A stretch of 64,000 bases of DNA from assembly GCA_021162365.1 (NCBI GenBank), contig JAGGYW010000014.1:2518-66517 (forward strand). The letters are read 5' to 3'. The notes below the pieces were generated by a model. That model was not told the DNA's origin. It did not search any database and saw nothing but the letters and a program-made list of their open reading frames with translations. The position numbers were made by a program, and so were the translations under genes. This stretch comes from Nanobdellota archaeon (lineage in GTDB: Archaea > Nanobdellota > Nanobdellia > CSSed11-243R1). Below, one piece after another: positions 2,439-42,008 of the stretch. How positions within the stretch are numbered: the stretch's first letter is position 1; each line of letters begins with the position of its first letter.

Positions 2439-3689
2439 ATGGATTTAAGTTCAATTTCACTACTTGTATTAATTTATTTTATGCTTTACTCTAGCATATT
2501 CTGGCTTCTATTGTATTTTGAAAAGAAGAAAAGCTTAAGTGAAGACCCAAAGCCGAAACGATTCCCTCTTGTAAGCATAGTAATTCCAGTATATAAAGGG
2601 GATAAAAAAGAAGTAATCAAGAAGGCAATCTCATCTGCATTAAGCTTGAGTTATCCAAAAAAAGAGATAATATTGTCATGGAATGGTCCAAAAACAGATG
2701 CCTACAAACTATGTGAAAAACTGGCAAATGAAAACAAAAACGTTAAACTAGTTTATACCCCAAAAAAAGGAAAAGCTGCAGGAATGAATGAAGCCTTGAA
2801 ACACATTAAAGGCGAACTGTTTTGTTGTTTAGATGCAGATTCATTCTTCCACAAAGACGCATTAGAACACATGGTTGGCTACTTTGAGGACCCAAAAATT
2901 GGGGCAGTCACAAGCAGCATGAAGGTATTTAACCCTAAGACAATTGTCCAAAAAATTCAATGGGTAGAATACATATTTGCAATATATCTAAGAAAGTTAT
3001 CATCCCTTATAGATTGTTTGTATGTCGTTCCAGGGCCAGGAAGTATGTATAGAACAGAAACAATCAAGAAAATTGGAGGGTTCGATGAAAACAACCTAAC
3101 CGAGGATATGGAAATTGCATTTCGCCTTTTGGATAATGGGTATAAAATCAAAAACAGCCTAAATGCATTTGTAGATACAATTGCTCCAAGTAAATTCATA
3201 GGCCTGCTAAAACAACGCATTAGATGGTACACTGGATTTTATGATAACGTTAAGCTTTACAGACACATGTTATTTAATCCAAAAGCGGGAATGTTAGGAA
3301 TATTTATGCTTCCTTTATCAATTGTCTGGGTAGGGATTATATTATATTCCATTGCAATTTTAATTAAATCTGTAGTGACTAAAGCGGTGTTCGATTTAAC
3401 TATTTTATCCATAATTGGACTGGATTTAGATGTGCTTATAAGCATCATCAAAAGAACCCTTGTATTTCAGCCAACATATTTAACATGGTTTGCATTTGTA
3501 CTATCCTTCATTGGCATATATGTAATCTATCTTGGATTAAAAATGTCGAAAGAAAAAGCAGAAGTAACACATAAATACCCCCACTATATCACATATTTAT
3601 TGTTTTACAGCATACTCGTTGGAGTATTTTGGATATCAACCCTTGGATACATCGTTGCACGCAGCAAGCTAAAATATAGGTTGTGGTAA
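2439..3689 (+). CDS. Membrane-integrated processive GT2 glycosyltransferase (cellulose/chitin/hyaluronan-synthase-like, QxxRW motif)
   Basis: SIVIPVYK, D-A-D (CLDADS), TED and the QRIRW motif are present. Multiple TM helices lie N- and C-terminal of the catalytic domain. Confidence 0.65.
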   Translation: MDLSSISLLVLIYFMLYSSIFWLLLYFEKKKSLSEDPKPKRFPLVSIVIPVYKGDKKEVIKKAISSALSLSYPKKEIILSWNGPKTDAYKLCEKLANENKNVKLVYTPKKGKAAGMNEALKHIKGELFCCLDADSFFHKDALEHMVGYFEDPKIGAVTSSMKVFNPKTIVQKIQWVEYIFAIYLRKLSSLIDCLYVVPGPGSMYRTETIKKIGGFDENNLTEDMEIAFRLLDNGYKIKNSLNAFVDTIAPSKFIGLLKQRIRWYTGFYDNVKLYRHMLFNPKAGMLGIFMLPLSIVWVGIILYSIAILIKSVVTKAVFDLTILSIIGLDLDVLISIIKRTLVFQPTYLTWFAFVLSFIGIYVIYLGLKMSKEKAEVTHKYPHYITYLLFYSILVGVFWISTLGYIVARSKLKYRLW

Positions 3690-9023: not shown

Positions 9024-9145
9024 GGGTCCGTGGTCTAGTGCATCTTTCTTTGGAAAAGAAAGCTGCACCAAAGAAAGGGGCTGGACAATGGTATGACGCC
9101 ACCCTCACGCGGTGGAGGTCCCCGGTTCGAGTCCGGGCGGACCCA
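9024..9145 (+). tRNA. tRNA-Val (anticodon CAC) with a roughly 49-nt intron in the D-loop (about 9041-9089). The anticodon loop is uninterrupted.
   Basis: Acceptor GGGTCCG/CGGACCC, anticodon stem CCACC/GGTGG, loop CTCACGC, T-arm CCCGG-TTCGAGT-CCGGG. The D-loop sequence AGTG...GGTATGAC is split by an insert forming the hairpin CTTTCTTTGG/AAAGAAAG. Confidence 0.7.
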
Positions 9146-9596: not shown

Positions 9597-9754
9597 GCGG
9601 GAGTGCCGGAGCGGTCAAACGGGCACGGCTCAAGGCACCCTTTTAGAAAAAGCGTGCACGGAAAAGGGTGAGTGACACCGTGTGGCTTAGTGCTGATGTG
9701 CCCAATGGCACTTGGCGAGCAATGCCTACGCAGGTTCAAATCCTGCCTCCCGCA
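9597..9754 (+). tRNA. tRNA-Leu (anticodon CAA), 158 nt: canonical intron after position 37 plus an additional insertion in the variable-arm region
   Basis: Acceptor GCGGGAG/CTCCCGC with discriminator A. Anticodon stem CACGG...CCGTG with loop CTCAAG|intron|A. T-arm GCAGG-TTCAAAT-CCTGC. The 47-nt variable region is about 30 nt longer than a Leu variable arm. Confidence 0.6.
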
Positions 9755-14867: not shown

Positions 14868-15025
14868 TAGCGGGGGGTGGATTTGAACCACCGACCTCCG
14901 GGTCTCCCACTTAATTCCTTTTCCGTACACGCTTTGCGCGAAGCGGAAAGGGTGTTATGAGCCCGGCGACCACTCCAGGCTAGTATGGGTTCCCCAACAA
15001 AACCTTATCGAGGATCTACCCCGCT
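14868..15025 (-). tRNA. Initiator tRNA-Met (anticodon CAT) with two introns: one in the D-arm and one at or near the canonical anticodon-loop site
   Basis: Read on the minus strand: AGCGGGG...CCCCGCT-A with an A1:U72 pair. The anticodon arm CCGGG-CTCATAA-[about 50-nt insert]-CCCGG carries the three G:C pairs typical of initiators. T-arm GGTGG-TTCAAAT-CCACC. The 5' region is about 31 nt too long between the D-stem strands. Confidence 0.6.
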
Positions 15026-33264: not shown

Positions 33265-34771
33265 GCTCCGAAAAGAAGTTACCCAAAACTAACTCAACTC
33301 CTTTTTTCTCATGCATGAGTTTCATTAATTGCTTTTTATCCTTGTAATACTCACTAACAACTTTACCAACAGTGTTAACAGTATCAATGTTATTCTCAAC
33401 TAACCACTTTAGGATACCCGTCTTTTCCTTCATGTCCTTTTGGAGTTCATCCTTACTAAGACCAGTGAACAATTTTATCTCATTCATTAATCTCTTCGAA
33501 TCCCCTACTTTCATCTGAACATCTTTACTTGCATCCCATCTATATATTGTATTAATCTCAACCTCCTTTCCAGAAACAACTTCTGAAACCTCAAAAAGAC
33601 GGCGTATATTCTTTCTTCTTTGCCTGAACATGATTGCAAACAAAGGCAATGAACGAATCAAATCGGGAGGTAAATTAATTGGAGGTGAGGTTAATCTTCT
33701 AAATGCCTCCTCTGCAGTATTTGCATGTAATGTAGAATAAACAGAGTGGCCTGTATTCAATGCTTCAAACAAAACTTCGGCTTCCTCTTGCCTTCTTACT
33801 TCTCCAACAACAATCCTGTCCGGCCTCATCCTCAAGGAATTTATTAACAAATCAAGCATATCCACCCCACCTTTCCCCTCAGGATTTGGATCTCTTGTGG
33901 TAAGGGGGACCCAATGTAAAAATGATGGAAGGTTGAGTTCCCTTGTTTCTTCAATACTTATGACTCTCTGATTTGGGGGAACAAACGGAAGTATAACATT
34001 AAGCAAACTTGTCTTACCTGTGGCTGTTCCACCACCAATGATTATACTCATCTCATATTGCACTGCCAACCACAGAAGAGCAGCAGTTTCATAATTTAAT
34101 GTCTTATTCTTGATAAAATCAGTAATTGTCCATGGTTTCCTTCTGAACATTCTAATTGTAAGAGTGTTCCCTTTTGTAGAGATAGGAAACAAGGTTGCAT
34201 TAACTCTGTCGCCGGTCAATAAATGTGCATCCATTAATGGATTTAAAACAGTTATTTGTCTTCCAACTCTTCTGCCAACTATGGATGCATAGTTTTTAAT
34301 TTGCTCCTCGCTATCAACAATTAAGTTTGTCTCGAGCCACCCAAGTTTTTTATGGTAAACCCATACTGGTTCTTTGCTGTTGTTTATAACAATTTCCTCC
34401 AAGTTATCGTCATGCAAAAGAAACTCCACATTTCCTAATCCAAGCATCTCATTAACCAAAAAAGTAATTCCGTAATCGACGACTTCCTCCGGAGCAGTAG
34501 GGATACCTTCTTTAATTATTTCCCTAGCTTTTGCCGATATTGTATACTTAATTTTCTCAAATTGAATTGGATCCCTTAACACTTCTAACTTTATAGGAAT
34601 TTTAGCAATTAGCTTATCCCTAACATCTTCCAAAAACGCCAGTGTTGCTGGCTCCAATTTTGGTAGATTTAAAACATAAATTGGGACAAATTTATCTTCA
34701 TCCTTGTAGATAGAAACAGTTACCTTTGTTGTACCTATTCTTACAGGATAGTTGCTAATTTGTTTTCTCAT
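33254..34771 (-). CDS. Type IV pilus/archaellum-family secretion ATPase (PilB/FlaI/TadA-like)
   Basis: Walker A GGTATGKTS. Asp box, Walker B and His box arrangement match the VirB11/GspE superfamily. Confidence 0.8.
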   Translation of the reverse strand: MRKQISNYPVRIGTTKVTVSIYKDEDKFVPIYVLNLPKLEPATLAFLEDVRDKLIAKIPIKLEVLRDPIQFEKIKYTISAKAREIIKEGIPTAPEEVVDYGITFLVNEMLGLGNVEFLLHDDNLEEIVINNSKEPVWVYHKKLGWLETNLIVDSEEQIKNYASIVGRRVGRQITVLNPLMDAHLLTGDRVNATLFPISTKGNTLTIRMFRRKPWTITDFIKNKTLNYETAALLWLAVQYEMSIIIGGGTATGKTSLLNVILPFVPPNQRVISIEETRELNLPSFLHWVPLTTRDPNPEGKGGVDMLDLLINSLRMRPDRIVVGEVRRQEEAEVLFEALNTGHSVYSTLHANTAEEAFRRLTSPPINLPPDLIRSLPLFAIMFRQRRKNIRRLFEVSEVVSGKEVEINTIYRWDASKDVQMKVGDSKRLMNEIKLFTGLSKDELQKDMKEKTGILKWLVENNIDTVNTVGKVVSEYYKDKKQLMKLMHEKKGVELVLGNFFSELER

Positions 34772-34832
34772 TTTAACCTACTAATTTAACATTAAGAACC
34801 TTTATATTTTTTAAAATTACTTTCCATTAGTA

Positions 34833-37800
34833 ATGAATCATATAAAGAAGCTCGAAATATTTGGATTTAAATCCTTCTCCGGAAGAAAAGAAATTACATT
34901 TCCTGAGGGGTTAAACTGCATAATGGGCCCAAATGGAAGCGGAAAAAGCAACGTCACAGAAGCTATCTGCTTTGTTCTAGGAAAAGCGTCAAAAAAAGAC
35001 CTCCGCGCAGAAAGACTGGGCGACTTAGTATTCAATGGTGGAAAGAAACTTCCACCAAGCAAGTTTGCAAAAGTGACAATTGTCATAGACAACAAAAATA
35101 GAAGATTTCCAATAGATGATGACGAAGTAAGAATAAGTAGAAAAGTAGACAGAGAAGGGAGAAGTTTGTTCAGGGTAAACGGAAAAAGAGAAACAAGAGA
35201 ATATGTAAAAAACTTACTTGCCTATGCGAATATAGATGCGGACGGATACAACATAGTAATGCAGGGAGAGATAGAAAAATTTGTGGATTTGTCCCCAGAT
35301 GAAAGAAGAAAAATAATTGAAGACTTATCAGGGATTTCTGTTTACGAAGAGAAAAAACACAAATGTATGCTAGAAATAGAAAAAGTCAATCAAAAGCTAA
35401 AGGAGGCAAACATAATTCTCAATGAAAAAATAAAGCATATGGAAGAACTAAAAAAGGAGAAAGAAGAAGCCGAAAAATTCAACGACCTAAAGGAAAAACT
35501 AAGATACAAAAAAGCCTCAAAATTATTCAAAGAGATTGAGGAAATTAATTCTGAAAAAAGAAAGCTTGAAGAAAAGGTATTATCAAAACAAAAAGAAATT
35601 GAAGAGTTAACAAACACAAAGCAGGAAATTTCAAAGAAGATAGATGAAATTAGTAAGGAAATAGAGAGCATAAACAAAACAACAGAAGAGCTCGGCGAAA
35701 CAGAACAGATAGAACTTAACAATCAAATTGAGAATCTAAGAATAAGAATAAATGAAATCAATGCTGAAATCAAAGGAAGGAAAAATGAGATAGTTAGGAT
35801 AAATGAAAGAAAAAAGCAAATTCAAAAAGATATAGAAATAAACAAAGAAAATTCAAAAAAATCAGAGGAGAGACTTAAAAAACTAAGCGAAGAGAGCGAA
35901 GCACTAAAGAAAAAGCTCGAAAAGCTGAAGGAAGAATTTAAGCTATTAAGTAACCTAGACAAAGAGAGAGTAGAAATAAAATCAAAGATAAATGAAGTTG
36001 AAAAAGAAATAATTAACATCAAAGGAGAGTTAAGTACTTTTGAAGAGAGAATAAAAGGAATTGAAAAAAAGAAAGAACTTGAAAAAGAACTAAATCTGAA
36101 AGAGCGTATTCTCAAAGAAAAGGCCGAAGAAGATTCCTCCCTTGCAATAAAAATATCTGGCCTAAAGGAAGAAAGAGACAAGCTTAACAAGCAGCTCCAC
36201 ACCTTTGAAGGGAAGAAAGAAATCTTGTTTGGTCTCCTGAAAAAAGGTGTTAGAGCAATCCTGCAAGCGAAGGAAAGAGGCGAAATAAAAGGAATTCATG
36301 GATTAGTATACGACCTTGCAAAAGTTGATGAAAAATATTCTGTGCCAATTAAAGTAGCTGCGGGTAATAGGAGTAACGCAATAGTTGTTGACAATGTAGA
36401 TGTTGCAAAAGAGTGCATAAGGTTTCTGCGTGAAAATAAACTTGGCGTAGCTACATTTCTCCCACTAGACAAACTAAGAACAGAAAAAATCAAAAAAGAA
36501 ATCAAAGTAGGGAACGGTGTAGTTGGCTATGCAATTGATTTAATAAAATATGACAAGAGATATGAAAATGTATTCAACTATATTTTATCCGACACACTTA
36601 TTGTAAAAGATATTGAAACTGCAAAAAGAGTTGGGATTAACAAATATAGGATGGTAACTCTTAAAGGGGACTTAATAGAAAAAAGTGGGGCAATCTCCGG
36701 AGGACATAGGCAAAAGGAAACTCTCGGGTTTAGCAGCGAGCCGTTGGACGAAAAAATAGAAAAAATAAAATCGGAGATTTCTGAAATTGCATCTCAGATA
36801 ACTTCGCTTGAATCTAAAAGAGAAAAGTTGTTTGAAGACATCTCAAATATGAGAAGCGAAATATTTCACTTAAACTCAACAATTGAGAGTATAGAAGATG
36901 TCAATGAAGAAAAATTAAAAGAACTAAAAGAAAAACTAAAGGAGAAAGAAAAGCTGAGAGCTGAGCTTGAGGCTAAGCTTAAAGAAATGCCTTCTAAGGC
37001 AGACGAAGAACTGCTAAACAAACTAAGCAAGGACATAGAAACCACACAAACAAAGATAAATGAATTAGAAGCAAAAAAAGGAGGAATAAAATTTGAGATA
37101 GAAATCTCGCAAAAAGATTTAGAACGCTCAACGAAACTTTTGGAAGAGCTACAAAAAGAGGAGGAAAACTTCAAAAAGACAATTTCCTCTCTTGAAGATG
37201 AATCTAAAAAGCTTGAAAGTGATCTAAAGAAAAAGCTTGAAGAAGAAAAGAGATTCCACTCAAAGCTAAGGGAACTTTACGAAAAGAGAAACAAATTGAA
37301 TGACAAAATAAAACAGCTTGAGATAAAAAAAGCAAGAATCGATGAAAAGATAGAAAAAATAAGAGATGAATTCAATAACTTAAAACTCAAACTCGCAGAA
37401 GTAAATGCAAAACTTGAGGGAAAAAACACTGCCATGCAGGAGTTCTCAGACATCAAAATTGAAAAGGTTAACAAAAGCATAAAAGAACTTGAAAAAGAAA
37501 TACACACGCTTGAGATGTTAATCTCAAACTTCGGCGCTGTAAATCTACGGGCGCTTGATGTATACAAAGAAGTTGAAAAAGAGTATAATGAACTGAAAGA
37601 AAAATACGACAAATTAAACGAGGAGAAAAATGAAATCTTAAAAGTTATGGAAGAAGTAGAAGAAAAGAAAAAAGAGGCATTCTTCGAAACATTCAACAAT
37701 GTAGCTAAAAACTTCGAAAGAGTATTCTCGATCTTATCTCCAAACGGGGAAGGTAAGCTCGTACTTGAAAATGAGGACAACCCATTTGAAGGGGGGTTAG

Positions 37801-38129
37801 ACATAATCGCTCGCCCGGGTGGAAAAAAATTCATCTCTTTAAGAGCAATGAGTGGTGGAGAAAAAACACTAACAACTCTTGCATTTATATTCGCAGTTCA
37901 GGAGTATATACCCTCTCCATTTTACATAATGGATGAAGTTGAAGCCGCGCTAGACAGAGAGAATTCCGAAAGACTAGCACAATTGCTTGCAGAATATTCA
38001 AAAACATCGCAGTTTATTGTGGTTACACACAATGATGCGGTACTCGCCCACGCAGACACAATTTATGGAGTGCACATGAATCAACTTGGTGAGTCCCAAA
38101 TAGTTTCCGTAAAGCTTCCTAAGAGATAA
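34833..38129 (+). CDS. smc: Chromosome segregation protein SMC
   Basis: N-terminal Walker A GPNGSGKSN. Long coiled coils with a central hinge (GxxGxAIDLI). C-terminal signature LSGGEKTL and Walker B. Confidence 0.9.
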   Translation: MNHIKKLEIFGFKSFSGRKEITFPEGLNCIMGPNGSGKSNVTEAICFVLGKASKKDLRAERLGDLVFNGGKKLPPSKFAKVTIVIDNKNRRFPIDDDEVRISRKVDREGRSLFRVNGKRETREYVKNLLAYANIDADGYNIVMQGEIEKFVDLSPDERRKIIEDLSGISVYEEKKHKCMLEIEKVNQKLKEANIILNEKIKHMEELKKEKEEAEKFNDLKEKLRYKKASKLFKEIEEINSEKRKLEEKVLSKQKEIEELTNTKQEISKKIDEISKEIESINKTTEELGETEQIELNNQIENLRIRINEINAEIKGRKNEIVRINERKKQIQKDIEINKENSKKSEERLKKLSEESEALKKKLEKLKEEFKLLSNLDKERVEIKSKINEVEKEIINIKGELSTFEERIKGIEKKKELEKELNLKERILKEKAEEDSSLAIKISGLKEERDKLNKQLHTFEGKKEILFGLLKKGVRAILQAKERGEIKGIHGLVYDLAKVDEKYSVPIKVAAGNRSNAIVVDNVDVAKECIRFLRENKLGVATFLPLDKLRTEKIKKEIKVGNGVVGYAIDLIKYDKRYENVFNYILSDTLIVKDIETAKRVGINKYRMVTLKGDLIEKSGAISGGHRQKETLGFSSEPLDEKIEKIKSEISEIASQITSLESKREKLFEDISNMRSEIFHLNSTIESIEDVNEEKLKELKEKLKEKEKLRAELEAKLKEMPSKADEELLNKLSKDIETTQTKINELEAKKGGIKFEIEISQKDLERSTKLLEELQKEEENFKKTISSLEDESKKLESDLKKKLEEEKRFHSKLRELYEKRNKLNDKIKQLEIKKARIDEKIEKIRDEFNNLKLKLAEVNAKLEGKNTAMQEFSDIKIEKVNKSIKELEKEIHTLEMLISNFGAVNLRALDVYKEVEKEYNELKEKYDKLNEEKNEILKVMEEVEEKKKEAFFETFNNVAKNFERVFSILSPNGEGKLVLENEDNPFEGGLDIIARPGGKKFISLRAMSGGEKTLTTLAFIFAVQEYIPSPFYIMDEVEAALDRENSERLAQLLAEYSKTSQFIVVTHNDAVLAHADTIYGVHMNQLGESQIVSVKLPKR

Positions 38130-38396
38130 TTAACTAAACTTACACTTAAAATTCTCACACCCACAATTTAAATCTGGCTTCTCTGTTTTGTTTAAAAACT
38201 CACAAAGTTCATCTGGACATTTCCACCAACTCAAATCCTTGGAGTCACATCTCCAAGTACAACAAACTTTCTGCATGTGGCAGTTAGAATCTAAAAGACA
38301 GGGAGTGTTTGGAATAAACTCTGGAGCAAATATATACACCGCTGCAACAACAATAATTACCCCAACTATGACCCCTGCAAAAAAAGAAGTGAACAT
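38130..38396 (-). CDS. Small membrane-anchored Cys-rich protein
   Basis: One N-terminal TM helix and 10 Cys in 88 aa. Confidence 0.3.
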   Translation of the reverse strand: MFTSFFAGVIVGVIIVVAAVYIFAPEFIPNTPCLLDSNCHMQKVCCTWRCDSKDLSWWKCPDELCEFLNKTEKPDLNCGCENFKCKFS

Positions 38397-38417
38397 GTTT
38401 TATCACCATAAAAGATA

Positions 38418-38591
38418 TGGGCCCGCCCAGATTCGAATTCCCCCACGCTTTCTTTCCGTGCACGCTTTCTTTCCGGAAAGAAAGGGTGCCTGGGGACCTC
38501 CCGCAGTCTGAACCCCCTTCTTTCCGTAAACGCTTTCTTGGAAAGAAAGGGTTTCGTCAAGCGGACGCCATAACCACTAGGCCACGGGCCC
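38418..38591 (-). tRNA. tRNA-Val (anticodon GAC), 174 nt, with two introns: canonical anticodon-loop site and T-arm (near 53/54)
   Basis: On the minus strand: GGGCCCG-TG-GCCTAGTGGTTATGGC-G-TCCGC-TTGACGA-[about 48-nt insert]-GCGGG-AGGTC-CCCAG-[about 50-nt insert]-TTCGAAT-CTGGG-CGGGCCC-A. Both inserts form CCCTTTCTTTCC/GGAAAGAAAGGG hairpins. Confidence 0.6.
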
Positions 38592-38616
38592 ATAAAATCT
38601 CCTTTAACATAGATGT

Positions 38617-39129
38617 TTAAAAATCTTTGGTTAGATATTCTCTCAGCTCATCAGAAGACAATACTTTCGTAATCTCCTTCATAGCACCCACCATTTCATG
38701 GAGTGCGCCATCCATCTCAATCATAGTCACAGTGAAATAAGTCATACCAAACGGATTGCTGAGCAATGGCTCCGATGTAAGATAAAATTCACTTCCATCC
38801 CACATTATCTTCTGAGGGGATTTATCCAAGTTTAGCAAACCATATTCTAAAACGCTAAAAGGTTTTGGAAAATCAATACTAACACCAACATACTGTCGCG
38901 CTGTATCTACACCATTTAAATTCCACATCACCATTCTTTCTCTTACCTTTGTATAATCTCTCTCAGGGAATATTATTCCACATAGATCAGGAGCATCCAC
39001 TTTCTTGAGAGGAGCATAGAATACAAAGAGCTGTACCCCACCCGGAATGATATATTCCCAACTACTAAATCTATCTTTGATATATTTCGCACGATTTCTG
39101 ATTGCATCTAAATCCATATACACCACCAT
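38617..39129 (-). CDS. Hypothetical protein (171 aa)
   Basis: Start trimmed to MVVYMDLD, since the listed N-terminal extension overlaps tRNA-Ser. No family recognised. Confidence 0.4.
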   Translation of the reverse strand: MVVYMDLDAIRNRAKYIKDRFSSWEYIIPGGVQLFVFYAPLKKVDAPDLCGIIFPERDYTKVRERMVMWNLNGVDTARQYVGVSIDFPKPFSVLEYGLLNLDKSPQKIMWDGSEFYLTSEPLLSNPFGMTYFTVTMIEMDGALHEMVGAMKEITKVLSSDELREYLTKDF

Positions 39130-39133
39130 AAAG

Positions 39134-39402
39134 CGCCGGGGGTGGGACTCTCGTGCACCCACGAAAGTTTTCTCTTTCGTGCACGTTTCTCTTTTCCAAA
39201 GAGAGAAAGTGCCTTCGAACCCACGCACCCTTGCGGGAACTGGCTTTCAGCCTGCTTTTCATAAACACTTTCTTTCCCTGCAGGCTTTCTGGAAAGAAAG
39301 GCTGCTAGCAGGCCAGCGCCATAACCAGATTCCCCACACCTTCTTCCCTTCTTTTGGTAAAGCTTTTCTTCGGGGAAGAAAAGGTTTCTAGGCGACCCCG
39401 GC
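39134..39402 (-). tRNA. tRNA-Ser (anticodon GCT), about 269 nt, with three introns (D-loop, canonical 37/38, T-loop)
   Basis: On the minus strand: GCCGGGG-TC-GCCTAG-[about 60 nt]-TGGTTATGGCG-C-CTGGC-CTGCTA-[about 59 nt]-A-GCCAG-var arm TTCCCGCAAGGGTGC-GTGGG-TTCGA-[about 62 nt]-GT-CCCAC-CCCCGGC-G. The alternative of two separate genes was considered; no second T-arm or acceptor was found. Confidence 0.5.
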
Positions 39403-39480
39403 ATGATTCATAGAAACAATATTCCTCTTATATTTCTTTCTCTTAGCACAAGCTTCTTTCTTTTAAGAAGAGAAAGTGAG

Positions 39481-39751
39481 TGGGCGGGCACGCCAACCCT
39501 TGAGAAGCCACACCAGGGGCAGTCCCCAGATCTTTTCTCCACCCCGTATCCCAAGAGCATGTGCTACCCTGCTTAGTGCTGCTTCCTTCCGGACCTCGCA
39601 CGGTTCACAGAATAACACATCCCTTGGGGCGAGGCTTCTTAGATACGACCTGGGCTTGCCCAAAATGTGGCAACCCTCAGGTTGGCTTCGGCCCCCCATA
39701 AGGACGGTTTGGGGTTAACAGGCCACGCCCAACGGCCCACCTAGCCCGCCC
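39481..39751 (-). ncRNA. ffs: Signal recognition particle RNA (7S/SRP RNA)
   Basis: The minus strand reads GGGCGGGC...GCCCGCCC, a terminal helix. Internally it contains GGUCCGGAAGGAAGCAGC, the conserved SRP RNA helix-8 (domain IV) motif. GC-rich relative to the genome. Confidence 0.7.
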
Positions 39752-39787
39752 AAATAAAAATTAAAAAAAGTCAAGTTAAAAAGTTTT

Positions 39788-40993
39788 CTAAACACCTAAA
39801 TCTTTTGCTGTAAGTATCTTGACTCTTCTACTACTTCCTGCCGCTCCCTCAGCTACAATCGTTGATATATGTGAGCGCTCTGCATATCTTATTATGTCAG
39901 GAGTTACTTGTCCATCCATAACGATTGTATCAACCTCTGGCAAGCTCCTTATTGTATTCTTCAGCTCCTTCGTTGGAACTTTACCAAGAATGTTCATATC
40001 CGAATCTAACAAGTAAGCTCCTCTGGTACCAATTAACTCATCAAGCATTTTCTTAAACTGCTTAGCATATTCTGGGTGTACATCACTTCTTCTTTGTTGT
40101 TGTCTTTGCTGTCTCCTTTCAACTCTTTGTTGCTGAACTTGTTGTGGCTTGTGATTTCCATTTTCTCCCATCTCTTCCTTAAATTGGTCTATGGGTATCT
40201 TTGCCCTTAGGCACTTATGGATCTCTTTTTTCGTTAGTTCCTCTACTTCCTTTCCTGAAGGTGCCATAGCAACAAAATCAACATCTCCCACAGCCATAAG
40301 TTCTCTAACGATTAACTTGCCACCTCTGTCTCCATCTACAAACACAGTTGTTGTCTTTGTTTTAGTAAGCTCTGCAACAGTTGGTGGAACAGATGTTCCA
40401 TTCAATCCAATAACATTCTTAAATCCGTGCTTAAGCAAGTTAATTACATCTGCCCTTCCTTCAACAACAATTATTTCATCACTATCTTTTATATTGGGTC
40501 CTGCCGGAAGTCTTTCTTTTCCATACTCAACTAACTCCAAACTCCTAACTGTCTGCTTTAACTCCTCCATGAGCTCTGCGGAATCAGGTCCTTTATCAAT
40601 CATGTTCTTCAAAAGCTCCTTTGCTCTTTCAATTACATATTCTCTCTTTGTAACTCTAACATCCTCTATGTTTTCCACACTAAGCTTAGCATTGCAAGGA
40701 CCAATCCTTTGTATTGTCTCCAAAGCAGAAGCCACAATTGCAGTTTCTGCCATGTCCATAGAAGAAGGAATTGTTATCTCACCTTCTGCCTTTCCACCTT
40801 TATTCTCAAGTTTCACTTCTATTCTTCCAATCCTACCTGATTTCTGCAATTCTCTTAGTTCCAAGTCAGAACCTAAAAGACCCTCAGTTTGTCCAAATAT
40901 GGCACCAATCACATCTGGTTTTTCAACAGTCCCATCCACATGTATCTTCGCATGAATAATGTATTTCGCAGATACGGGTGCTATCTTACCCAT
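39788..40993 (-). CDS. dnaG: Archaeal DnaG-type primase (TOPRIM; exosome-associated)
   Basis: N-terminus MGKI.PVSAKYIIHAKI..DG.VEKPDVIGAIFGQTEGLLG is archaeal DnaG-specific. TOPRIM IIVVEGRADV...DGDRGG. Contains a Gln/Arg-rich insertion. Confidence 0.8.
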   Translation of the reverse strand: MGKIAPVSAKYIIHAKIHVDGTVEKPDVIGAIFGQTEGLLGSDLELRELQKSGRIGRIEVKLENKGGKAEGEITIPSSMDMAETAIVASALETIQRIGPCNAKLSVENIEDVRVTKREYVIERAKELLKNMIDKGPDSAELMEELKQTVRSLELVEYGKERLPAGPNIKDSDEIIVVEGRADVINLLKHGFKNVIGLNGTSVPPTVAELTKTKTTTVFVDGDRGGKLIVRELMAVGDVDFVAMAPSGKEVEELTKKEIHKCLRAKIPIDQFKEEMGENGNHKPQQVQQQRVERRQQRQQQRRSDVHPEYAKQFKKMLDELIGTRGAYLLDSDMNILGKVPTKELKNTIRSLPEVDTIVMDGQVTPDIIRYAERSHISTIVAEGAAGSSRRVKILTAKDLGV

Positions 40994-40999
40994 TCAAAT

Positions 41000-41410
41000 C
41001 GCCTCCTTTTTAGCCAACGGCGAGAAATAGCTAAATACCTAGTTGGGTCTTTCAACCCAATTCATTGGTGATTACAGTGAACATGATGATTCTCGCCATT
41101 TGGCGCTTTAATTATGATTTTGGTAAGGTGTGAATATGATGGCCCGCAACTATCCGACTATCACGTGTCAAGTCAGCACCTTCGCGGGCCAAATATATCA
41201 AGCAGGAGTATTCTACGCTCACCGCCGAAGCTCGTGCGAGCCTCTCACGTAGAGAACCGGCCTGCTTGATTACGCCTTGCCACAACTATAGACACTACAT
41301 GCTTTTATAAAGCTTTCTATTAATTACTTTACAGGGACTACAATCACCATAACGTGTGGCGCCTTTCCCTTATTACAGGTTCATTTCTAACTTTCTTTTG
41401 GCTGGGCTTT
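41000..41410. ncRNA. Unassigned GC-enriched, highly base-paired noncoding region (candidate structured RNA; identity unknown)
   Basis: No ORF of 60 aa or more. Nested long-range complements: GCCAAcGGCGAGAA/TTCTCGCCaTTGGC, GGCCCGC/GCGGGCC, ATCAAGCAGG/CCTGCTTGAT, GCTCG-TG-CGAGC. An ATGATGA C-box-like element is present. Confidence 0.25.
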
Positions 41411-41510
41411 TTTTTCTTTGATAAAACTTTCTTCCTTAGAAAGAATTTCTTTTCCATTAATACCTTTCTCTCTTAGTACAGGTTCTCTCTTTTCTAAAGA
41501 GAGAAAGTGT

Positions 41511-42008
41511 TCACATGAAGCGCTGCATGTGGAAGAACGCCTTTACTTCGTTCTCTATGGTATGCATATCAGCAGCTACCTTCTCCTTCCATGTATCTAA
41601 GGTAGAACGATAGAAGTATGTATCATAAACACCCTTCAAAAACTTCATTAACGGGTTGGTTTCCCATCTATTTTCATAATCCGTCTGTATGAAACACTTT
41701 ATTTCCAACTCAATTGTACCAGAATTCTTTGTCGTTTGAACTCCTTCAACAACAACCTGCACCTTTTGCAAACCTAAAACAAGGGTCTTTGCAAAAATCC
41801 TAAATAAAGAGTAGTCATCAACTTTTTTATAACAATTCCATTCTATTTCTATCTCATCTCCTTCCGGCTTTGTTTTGTGTTTATACTTCTGCTCTTCAAC
41901 ATCATATCCTAAACTTCTAAACAAATCATAGAGAAGCCTATAGTAATCTCCGAAGTCAAAAATCCCAGTATATTTTGCACGCGCTTTTGTTACAGCTATT
42001 TCTTCCAT
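41511..42008 (-). CDS. Hypothetical protein
   Basis: 165 aa. A terminator-like hairpin (TCTCTCTTTTCTAAAGAGAGA) lies just downstream. Confidence 0.4.
   Translation of the reverse strand: MEEIAVTKARAKYTGIFDFGDYYRLLYDLFRSLGYDVEEQKYKHKTKPEGDEIEIEWNCYKKVDDYSLFRIFAKTLVLGLQKVQVVVEGVQTTKNSGTIELEIKCFIQTDYENRWETNPLMKFLKGVYDTYFYRSTLDTWKEKVAADMHTIENEVKAFFHMQRFM

Follow-up and report, generated by a model that had tools for sequence, protein, structure and literature searches.

To our knowledge, the Thermoproteales provide the only documented case of transfer RNA (tRNA) intron gain at odd positions, the agent of which is not known. Short dispersed palindromes form another point of reference: the bacterial Rickettsia palindromic elements (RPE), reportedly described by Ogata and colleagues in 2000, are 100-150 bp long and confined to one genus, and the repetitive extragenic palindromes (REP) and bacterial interspersed mosaic elements (BIME) are mobilised by REP-associated tyrosine transposases (RAYT; IS200/IS605-like Y1 transposases), REPs being species-specific and extragenic. 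Small functional RNAs are also found with archaeal tRNAs: a C/D box small RNA (sRNA) sits in the archaeal tRNA-Trp intron, and Nanoarchaeum has tRNA-sRNA dicistrons. Reviews summarize the Thermoproteales as combining multi-intron tRNAs, relaxed bulge-helix-bulge (BHB) motifs and intron families that imply DNA-level transposition (PMC4090602, PMC3239211); disrupted tRNAs are established for the archaeal Richmond Mine acidophilic nanoorganisms (PMC4090602, PMC3239211), and very high tRNA intron loads have lately been reported for Asgard genomes, with no element mentioned (PMC11291895). Here, we analysed a 64,000-nt stretch of DNA from a Nanobdellota archaeon (JAGGYW010000014.1, positions 2,518-66,517, forward strand; assembly GCA_021162365.1), hereafter the window, in which all five tRNA genes are interrupted, by 10 introns in total. 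Most of these introns share one architecture, that of a hairpin element whose boundary and structure can be defined and which is widespread in Archaea; the family is pan-archaeal rather than private to the lineage. The related introns are probably copies of a short mobile palindromic element, widespread in uncultivated Archaea and tolerated in tRNA genes through BHB splicing.

The resemblance to the Thermoproteales families (Fujishima et al. 2010, as summarized in PMC4090602 and PMC3239211) is evident: near-identical introns occupy unrelated tRNAs, and in those families, too, recent DNA-level gain has been inferred and a broad-specificity splicing endonuclease is needed. Judged by these summaries, the present case differs in its host, a DPANN archaeon with a G+C content of about 36% in the window, in a hairpin-plus-tail core that spans many phyla, and in the occurrence of the element past the 3' ends of tRNA and signal recognition particle (SRP) RNA genes, between genes and, in frame, within open reading frames (ORFs). 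At the level of sequence, the comparisons presented below show the element to be inserted DNA with its 5' end at base 1 of a basal helix, to occupy tRNA genes, sites just past stable-RNA 3' ends, intergenic regions and, in frame, protein genes, and to vary in presence, position and subtype between related sequences.

The five tRNA loci were located through G+C islands and T-arm motifs and then read in sense orientation; introns were delimited by manual reconstruction and with a BHB script, which looked for a 4-bp central helix with 3-nt bulges and placed each cut behind the second base of the bulge. On sequences from which the predicted introns had been taken out, ARAGORN identifies four of the five genes, as Val(cac), Leu(caa), Met(cat) and Val(gac); the spliced tRNA-Ser is misfolded by the program, its manual class II cloverleaf nonetheless being regular. 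Each insert thus lies within a tRNA gene and its removal restores the cloverleaf, for tRNA-Ser by hand only. In the raw window, ARAGORN and the Rfam tRNA model get none of the five genes right, and the sole call, a false partial Val at 9077-9145, rests on a false acceptor stem internal to the intron. With the default and canonical-intron options ARAGORN returned one false partial tRNA, and its low-stringency output was pure noise. Since four of the five genes escape standard tRNA finders, element-rich genomes (DPANN, anaerobic methanotrophic archaea of group 1 (ANME-1)) will look tRNA-poor.

An earlier note, made from the sequence alone, had described all five tRNA genes as intron-containing, which both the manual reconstruction and the BHB script bear out. 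It had listed eight introns, placed correctly to within a few bases, and had missed two, Leu_i2 and iMet_i1 (Table 1). Its proposal that the introns form one sequence family with a shared core and inverted arms holds for eight of the ten, as well as for two free-standing copies, IG1 and IG2; it fails for Leu_i2 and iMet_i1, which form their BHBs without pyrimidine/purine arms and are dissimilar to the family. A regular expression for the family, written post hoc after inspection of the window copies, has 11 matches in the window compared with 1.2 in shuffled sequences, 9 of them being family elements and 2 chance matches in ORFs. A covariance model, R1, built from 24 copies that all come from other archaea, matches five window introns (Leu_i1, ValGAC_i1, ValGAC_i2, iMet_i2 and Ser_i2; Table 1), and a scan of the whole 64 kb with R1 found nothing comparable outside them. 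In all five, the match starts at the first intron base, which had been predicted independently from tRNA structure. The family introns are located in the D-loop and at 37/38, 53/54 and 59/60 in the five tRNAs, intergenic copies adding a fifth kind of position; highly similar introns at different positions of non-orthologous tRNAs are the mark of a transposed family.

It could be argued that any AT-rich BHB intron needs a stable helix and that CT/GA hairpins look alike for that reason, the more so as the arms are polypyrimidine/polypurine runs and four of the ten window copies escape the strict model. Such convergence is effectively refuted. The copies have in common a non-repetitive core, C-GUNN-ACGG, and a C·C mismatch; a model derived from other phyla recovers half of them, with E down to 2e-14; the regular expression has 11 matches against 1.2 expected; and the two non-family introns of the same genes form BHBs without such arms. 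The observation that the introns share sequence beyond chance and CT/GA low complexity, the point on which the earlier note had made its claim depend, is therefore confirmed.

The element is about 40-65 nt long. Read from its 5' end, it opens with a basal helix of 4 bp (N1N2AC/GUN2'N1'), next to which come a conserved C·C mismatch and a stem of pyrimidines facing purines (CUUUU.../...AAAAG), the apical part of which varies; the hairpin is followed by a tail that is single-stranded (ACGGAAAR) and by a variable 3' extension. The hairpin can be written N1N2AC-C-CUUUU-(apical part)-AAAAG-C-GUN2'N1', followed by ACGGAAAA. Folding of the copies revealed that the two seemingly variable core bases pair with the two bases that precede ACCC. 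Among 122 copies found without constraint on these two base pairs, the basal helix is Watson-Crick at both in 114 (mean 37 and maximum 51 in shuffles). All four bases occur at the variable pairs, with no G·U in about 230 basal helices, and G·U accounts for 15 of 554 pairs in the apical stems. In an alignment of 24 sequences (A1), 99.5% of the cells are paired, a value reached by none of 500 shuffles. The retrieved sets show no variation in the C·C mismatch or the tail, but both were fixed by the search patterns; in the window copies, which underwent no pattern selection, the tail varies (ACGG, ACCA, AGGG and ACGA). Apical subfamilies include ACAGGAGCUUCCGCUUCCUCA and GCUCGCUCCAGAUGGGNACGCUCGC, and subtypes of the family include GAGCC/CCCTCGGG and GCAG/CCTGCAGGG. 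No relevant Rfam 15 match was obtained at E ≤ 5 for the window or at E ≤ 10 for 38400-39500, with gathering and permissive thresholds, and topic and literal-motif searches of the literature, the coverage of which is incomplete and does not extend to Fujishima et al. 2010, found no published description of the motif.

In the window genome, a second purine arm makes up the 3' extension and can replace the inner arm in pairing with the pyrimidine arm. The BHB motifs that the earlier note had proposed to look for are present: 8 of the 10 introns have a 4/4 central helix with 3-nt bulges at the predicted cuts (about 2% per site by chance), the remaining two being Ser_i2 (3/4) and Leu_i1 (2/4), and several introns are relaxed, with a weak h or h' helix. 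From this geometry and the restored cloverleaves, we infer that the introns are excised from mature tRNAs. When energies were computed by folding with one arm or the other blocked, the outer pairing of the pyrimidine arm with the second purine arm reached -12 to -25 kcal/mol, compared with -7.5 to -13 kcal/mol for the inner hairpin, and was the stabler of the two in each of the eight family introns; when folding is unconstrained, the minimum for Leu_i1 and Ser_i3 still keeps the inner hairpin. The outer pairing is continuous with the central helix of the BHB, to which the exon contributes four bases. Among copies from across Archaea, 58% of those linked to tRNAs have an outer helix of 7 bp or more, versus 18% of controls; for other copies, the figures are 39% versus 23%. 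In our reading, the second arm and the 3' end complementary to the exon are adaptations that would render an inserted hairpin spliceable.

These features suggest how a mobile element might be accommodated in tRNA genes. A copy inserted into such a gene would be co-transcribed, and the inner hairpin would fold first; the stabler outer pairing, joined by four bases of the exon, would then make the h' helix of an often relaxed BHB, both 3-nt bulges would be cleaved by the broad-specificity archaeal splicing endonuclease, and RtcB would ligate the exons. Because it would be spliced out, the insertion would presumably be harmless and persist as an 'intron'. The likeliest source of new copies would be a DNA-level mechanism that depends on the hairpin, and a host whose endonuclease has broad specificity would tolerate such insertions in large number (PMC3239211).

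Table 1. Coordinates (window numbering) of the tRNA genes, their introns, the free-standing element copies and the SRP RNA gene, with supporting details. R1, covariance model; h and h', helices of the BHB motif; n/4, pairs formed in the central helix.
Feature	Coordinates	Strand	Details
tRNA-Val(CAC), 1 intron	9024..9145	+	Acceptor GGGTCCG/CGGACCC; ARAGORN Val(cac) on 4/4 spliced variants
ValCAC_i1, D-loop, divergent family member	9041..9086 (±3 nt)	+	Regular-expression match, no R1 match; GCA-T-C-TTTCTTTGG / AAAAGAAAG-C-TGC / ACCAAAGAAAGG; three registers of one helix TCTAGT/GCTGGA, each with 4/4 central helix; the 6-bp length of the central helix leaves the borders uncertain by about 3 nt
tRNA-Leu(CAA), 2 introns	9597..9754	+	ARAGORN Leu(caa) only with both introns out
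Leu_i1, 37/38, canonical family member	9635..9676	+	R1 match 9635-9665, 53.1 bits, E 1.9e-14; relaxed BHB, central helix 2/4 (strict register), h 6 bp, h' 9 bp
Leu_i2, variable arm, 32 nt, non-family	9691..9722	+	Central helix GCTT/GAGC 4/4, h' 5; kept at the identical place in a relative (L024)
Initiator tRNA-Met, 2 introns	14868..15025	-	A1:U72 acceptor AGCGGGG/CCCCGCT; ARAGORN Met(cat) once spliced
iMet_i1, 10/11, 31 nt, non-family	14985..15015	-	Strict hBHBh'; GGGT/ACCC 4/4, h' 8-12 bp
iMet_i2, 37/38, canonical family member	14904..14955	-	R1 match 14955-14919, E 5.8e-9; central helix CTCA/TGGG 4/4, h 5
tRNA-Val(GAC), 2 introns	38418..38591	-	ARAGORN Val(gac) once spliced
ValGAC_i1, 37/38, canonical family member	38506..38554	-	R1 match, E 6.2e-10; TTGA/TCAG 4/4, h 5, h' 12 with slack
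ValGAC_i2, 53/54, canonical family member	38438..38489	-	R1 match, E 2.1e-9; CCCC/GGGG 4/4; 3' strand duplicated (GGAAAGAAAGCGTG twice)
tRNA-Ser(GCU), class II, 3 introns	39134..39402	-	Manual cloverleaf: acceptor GCCGGGG/CCCCGGC, G73, long variable arm
Ser_i1, D-loop, divergent family member	39331..39386	-	CCTA/TGGG 4/4; weak R1 match 39351-39387, E 2.4; basal helix AAA/TTT, C·C mismatch kept
Ser_i2, 37/38, subtype GCAG..CCTGCAGGG	39246..39305	-	R1 match, E 1.3e-3; relaxed BHB, central helix 3/4 (one U·U), h 6
Ser_i3, T-loop 59/60, divergent family member	39148..39213	-	Regular-expression match; TTCG/CGAG 4/4, h 5; GCAC-TTTCTCTCTTT...AAGAGAAA-C-GTGC-ACGAAAG, then CTTTCGTGGGTGCACG; additionally bears an inverted partial copy of core and tail
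IG1, free-standing copy	39432..39478	-	Same architecture; 3-4 nt past the SRP RNA 3' end (39482), upstream of the tRNA-Ser promoter
SRP RNA	39482..39751	-	Rfam RF01857, 148.6 bits, E 3.5e-34; immediately followed by IG1
IG2, free-standing copy	41463..41509	-	Same architecture; 1 nt past the stop codon of ORF 41511-42008

A first search pattern, CCTTT-gap-AAAGCGTKYACGGAAA, derived from four window copies and expected to give about 7 chance matches in the genome collection, was found at at least 118 genome loci, with about 105 archaeal and about 13 bacterial among the matches listed; the bacterial matches are at chance level. The archaeal hosts among the matches listed comprise ANME-1/Methanophagales, Methanosarcinales, Bathyarchaeia, Thermoplasmata and Altiarchaeota, together with the DPANN groups Nanoarchaeota, Woesearchaeota, Aenigmarchaeota, Micrarchaeota, Iainarchaeota, Undinarchaeota and Parvarchaeota; no Thermoproteales genome is among the matches listed for these at least 118 loci. 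A second pattern, in which the two core bases were left free, added at least 120 metagenome contigs and 8 viral contigs; the motif occurs at more than 200 loci. The suggestion of the earlier note that the element may exist outside tRNAs is thus borne out not only by IG1 and IG2 but also by non-tRNA copies across Archaea. Classing the contexts by element deletion followed by ARAGORN was confounded by multi-intron tRNAs, and a T-arm/acceptor detector was substituted, which is strict and leaves about 75% of the copies unclassified. By this measure, about a quarter of the copies lie in or beside tRNAs, in the D-loop, 36-42 nt from the 5' end, in the T-arm or 1-4 nt past the discriminator base, and the remainder between or within ORFs. 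The tRNA-associated copies show a pronounced strand bias, with 59 in tRNA sense versus 3 inside and 5 near a tRNA in the antisense control. The universal T-loop sequence TTCR may be the reason for the 59/60 hot spot. Clustering of the neighbouring ORFs at about 240 loci revealed no protein family in more than 4 loci and no linked transposase or reverse transcriptase.

Two arrangements of copies were noted in passing. Tandem arrays of 2-3 copies, 10-80 nt apart, occur at five loci (L036, L043, L078, L082 and L105), some with identical spacers, suggesting local duplication. In an IMG/VR viral contig (L126, about 705-740), the element lies between two 20-nt direct repeats (GGGCCCGGAGGGATTTGAAC), the repeat being the reverse complement of a tRNA 3' end and att-site-like.

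The DNA of the window is found on a metagenome scaffold as well. The turnover of the element can be followed by comparison with an 8-kb locus (L087) of 'Nanobdellati archaeon S014_metabat2_scaf2bin.107', Nanobdellati being the NCBI kingdom name for DPANN. The locus is syntenic with window positions 34164-40411 and shares the genes for SMC, tRNA-Val, tRNA-Ser, SRP RNA and DnaG, at 72-87% nucleotide identity, which identifies the host of the window as a DPANN archaeon. The tRNA-Ser introns lie at the identical three positions in both, and ValGAC_i1 is about 92% identical to its orthologue. The second Val-GAC intron is at 59/60 in L087 versus 53/54 in the window, and it belongs to the GCAG...CCTGCAGGG subtype, that of the window Ser 37/38 intron; the L087 intron at Ser 37/38 belongs to the subtype GCAC...CGTGCACGG. 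Between the two subtypes, bases have changed in concert, so that the basal pair is preserved, as is a palindrome of 8 nt (CGTGCACG or CCTGCAGG). In the Ser D-loop orthologues, the hairpin is kept by CCAC/GTGG in L087 versus AAA/TTT in the window. Given that L087 keeps the hairpins yet differs in position and subtype, both intron turnover and structural selection are present. The T-loop intron of the L087 tRNA-Val(GAC) (3489-3576) is composite, containing a sense copy and an inverted, antisense copy whose tails pair with each other (AGGGAAAGAAA/TTTCTTTTCCCT), a configuration that resembles inverted REP pairs.

Conservation of this kind raises the question of whether the hairpin and tail are primarily a functional RNA module, such as a kinetic switch in folding (from the inner hairpin to the outer BHB helix) or a site bound by a conserved archaeal protein of RNA processing, attached to stable-RNA precursors (introns and 3' trailers), freed by tRNA processing and kept similar by purifying selection. 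Such a role would fit the identity of the core across phyla, the strong sense-strand bias at tRNAs, the hairpin maintained by compensatory change in orthologous introns and the recurrence of the two alternative pairings, with outer helices enriched in tRNA-linked copies. It would also fit the fact that the element begins at processing sites: at the 5' splice site in all five R1 matches, 1-4 nt past tRNA 3' ends and 3-4 nt past SRP RNA. The C/D box sRNAs offer a parallel, being small structured RNAs that the enzymes of tRNA processing set free from an intron or trailer; however, the element lacks the C (RUGAUGA) and D (CUGA) boxes, a K-turn and a guide, and no Rfam snoRNA match overlaps it in the window or in 38400-39500. 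Nor does the element match any Rfam family, the near-absence of G·U is more typical of DNA palindromes, and the antisense copy within the L087 tRNA intron is not what an RNA module would lead one to expect. We regard this explanation as unlikely in its primary form, yet it is a live alternative and compatible with mobility.

Evidence that favours mobile inserted DNA over both this and other RNA-based accounts comes from protein genes. The element occurs within the coding sequence of ANME-1-type IS200/IS605 tnpA genes, and an alignment of six homologous tnpA genes reveals three sites at which some genes carry an insert and others do not; the inserts are 45 or 39, 39 and 36 nt long, all multiples of three, and the frame stays open through them. 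In these genes (L098 7568-7900, L038, L007, L023, L002 and L198), the inserts, up to three per gene, lie beside the HUH motif and in two later loops and are either the element or a hairpin variant (AAAACTTT..AAAGTTTT followed by ATCAAAAACGCTTCGCAA), the combination of filled sites differing between gene copies. Further surveying brought the in-frame copies to six Pfam domains, namely Y1_Tnp, Diphthamide_syn, Glyco_transf_4, PCMT, CbiZ and P-type ATPase hydrolase, the PCMT copy being on the opposite strand. Where long open frames lie on both sides of a copy, the two frames agree in 18 cases and disagree in 5, a ratio that is indicative but not unbiased, as the ORF survey sees only frame-preserving copies. 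The tnpA copies are not credible as messenger RNA introns, since no convincing BHB surrounds them and the frames run through the inserts. Collectively, the in-frame location, the presence/absence at homologous sites and the wide spread are indicative of mobile inserted DNA, which would persist where it is tolerated. In-frame insertions in unrelated domains, one of them on the opposite strand, and presence/absence in homologous genes with lengths always in multiples of three are difficult to accommodate if the hairpin is first of all an RNA module. The view of the earlier note that the introns have propagated, as mobile or duplicated sequences, is likewise supported by these homologous genes, by the turnover in L087 and by the varied positions in unrelated tRNAs.

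Movement could also have taken place at the RNA level, excised BHB introns being re-inserted at processing sites by reverse splicing or RtcB ligation, reverse transcribed and recombined, which is one reading of the 'intron transposition' of the Thermoproteales. The element boundary does coincide with endonuclease or RNase Z cleavage sites, the sense-strand bias at tRNAs is in line with such a route, and intron families at different positions, as summarized in PMC4090602 (citing Fujishima et al. 2010), provide a precedent. We nevertheless find it quite improbable: the ORF copies are in frame and have no convincing BHB, one being on the opposite strand, an inverted pair of copies resides inside a single intron, the clustering of neighbouring ORFs linked no reverse transcriptase to the copies, and the cited review favours DNA-level gain (PMC4090602).

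The mobile palindromic element thus remains our preferred explanation, and several observations weigh against it. No transposase or other mobilising activity was identified near the copies at about 240 loci, although an enzyme may act in trans, and no target-site duplication distinguishes filled from empty tnpA sites. Near-identical 8-mers across phyla are unusual for a selfish repeat and suggest a conserved recognition factor or a role at the RNA level. Likewise, the compensatory change in the Ser D-loop orthologues indicates selection on structure, not just copy-and-paste. The sense-strand bias at tRNAs is not obviously predicted by a symmetric DNA palindrome, and simple insertion gives no account of why the 3' end of each intron is tailored to its own exon. 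ValCAC_i1, Ser_i3, IG1 and IG2 are divergent variants assigned on shared architecture alone, some three-quarters of the copies fall outside the classes of the strict tRNA-context detector, and the splicing of the introns, their circular forms and the translation of in-frame inserts are all putative. With these points in mind, we advance a more far-reaching proposal only tentatively: that one hairpin family of about 45 nt, distributed from DPANN to ANME-1, Bathyarchaeia and Thermoplasmata, is a major source of non-canonical archaeal tRNA introns, that its insertion takes place at the DNA level, in tRNA genes, in the trailers of stable RNAs and, with the frame kept, in protein genes, the hairpin being recognised and moved by a Y1/HUH-type enzyme in trans or by a universal host enzyme, and that in tRNAs it gains a second arm and becomes a spliceable BHB intron.

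As a short imperfect palindrome with dispersed copies and presence/absence at homologous sites, the element has the properties of REP- and RPE-type repeats, and, as far as the sequences go, the six Pfam domains and the inserts of 36, 39 and 45 nt display the hallmark of RPE, in-frame insertion in protein genes. RPE are likewise short palindromes found in frame in unrelated protein genes and in RNA genes, apparently tolerated and devoid of an internal transposase; the archaeal element is shorter (40-65 nt), occurs in many archaeal phyla and would be removed from tRNA genes as a BHB intron. With REP/BIME it shares an imperfect palindrome with a conserved mismatch and an adjoining conserved single-stranded motif, many copies after genes, inverted pairs and covariation without G·U. 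It differs from them in that neighbour clustering at about 240 copies identified no cognate RAYT/TnpA, in its copies in tRNA genes and ORFs and in its cross-phylum core; the copies in ANME-1 tnpA are coding-sequence insertions, not transposon ends. A miniature inverted-repeat transposable element was rejected, as terminal inverted repeats and a target-site duplication are lacking: the element is a hairpin with an asymmetric tail, and the tnpA sites have no duplication.

If the mobile-element explanation is true, the agent of the long-debated gain of archaeal tRNA introns would have a defined sequence, structure and boundary, and would become concrete and testable. The element can be searched for with a small covariance model, is present in many phyla and offers filled and empty sites for comparison. 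Were the in-frame copies translated, it would represent an archaeal counterpart of RPE, with peptide insertions in essential enzymes. Gene callers may mis-annotate proteins that bear the insert.

Several other identities were considered for the hairpin. A K-turn/L7Ae site, H/ACA RNA, hammerhead or pistol-type ribozymes, a selenocysteine insertion sequence, a promoter with B recognition element (BRE) and TATA box, and a CRISPR-repeat-like hairpin with an 8-nt handle were dropped on inspection, their defining motifs or tests being lacking. A purine-motif triple helix, in which the tail would run antiparallel to the purine strand, is compatible with Ser_i1; given the mirror symmetry of most arms, however, the sequences do not discriminate for or against it. 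A role of CCCTTTT as an oligo-T terminator is possible for the trailer copies and does not account for those in introns and ORFs.

Two minor features lie near IG2. A single BHB-like candidate (ATGT/GTAT, h' 11) surrounds this copy, and a lysine-rich ORF of 37 codons (41344-41457, minus strand; MEKKFFLRKKVLSKKKKPSQKK...) begins exactly at its 3' cut, so that excision of the candidate would set the ATG of this ORF right behind the upstream stop codon; this is probably a coincidence. Between the DnaG gene and ORF 41511-42008 lies a 165-nt segment (41128-41292, minus strand) with a G+C content of about 60%, for which no Rfam match and no credible ORF were found. It folds as two long helices with a minimum free energy of -65.6 kcal/mol (z -3.8; none of 200 shuffles equally stable) and has a BRE/TATA-like sequence, AAAGCTTTATAAAAGC, about 25 nt upstream, making it a candidate for an unknown structured RNA.

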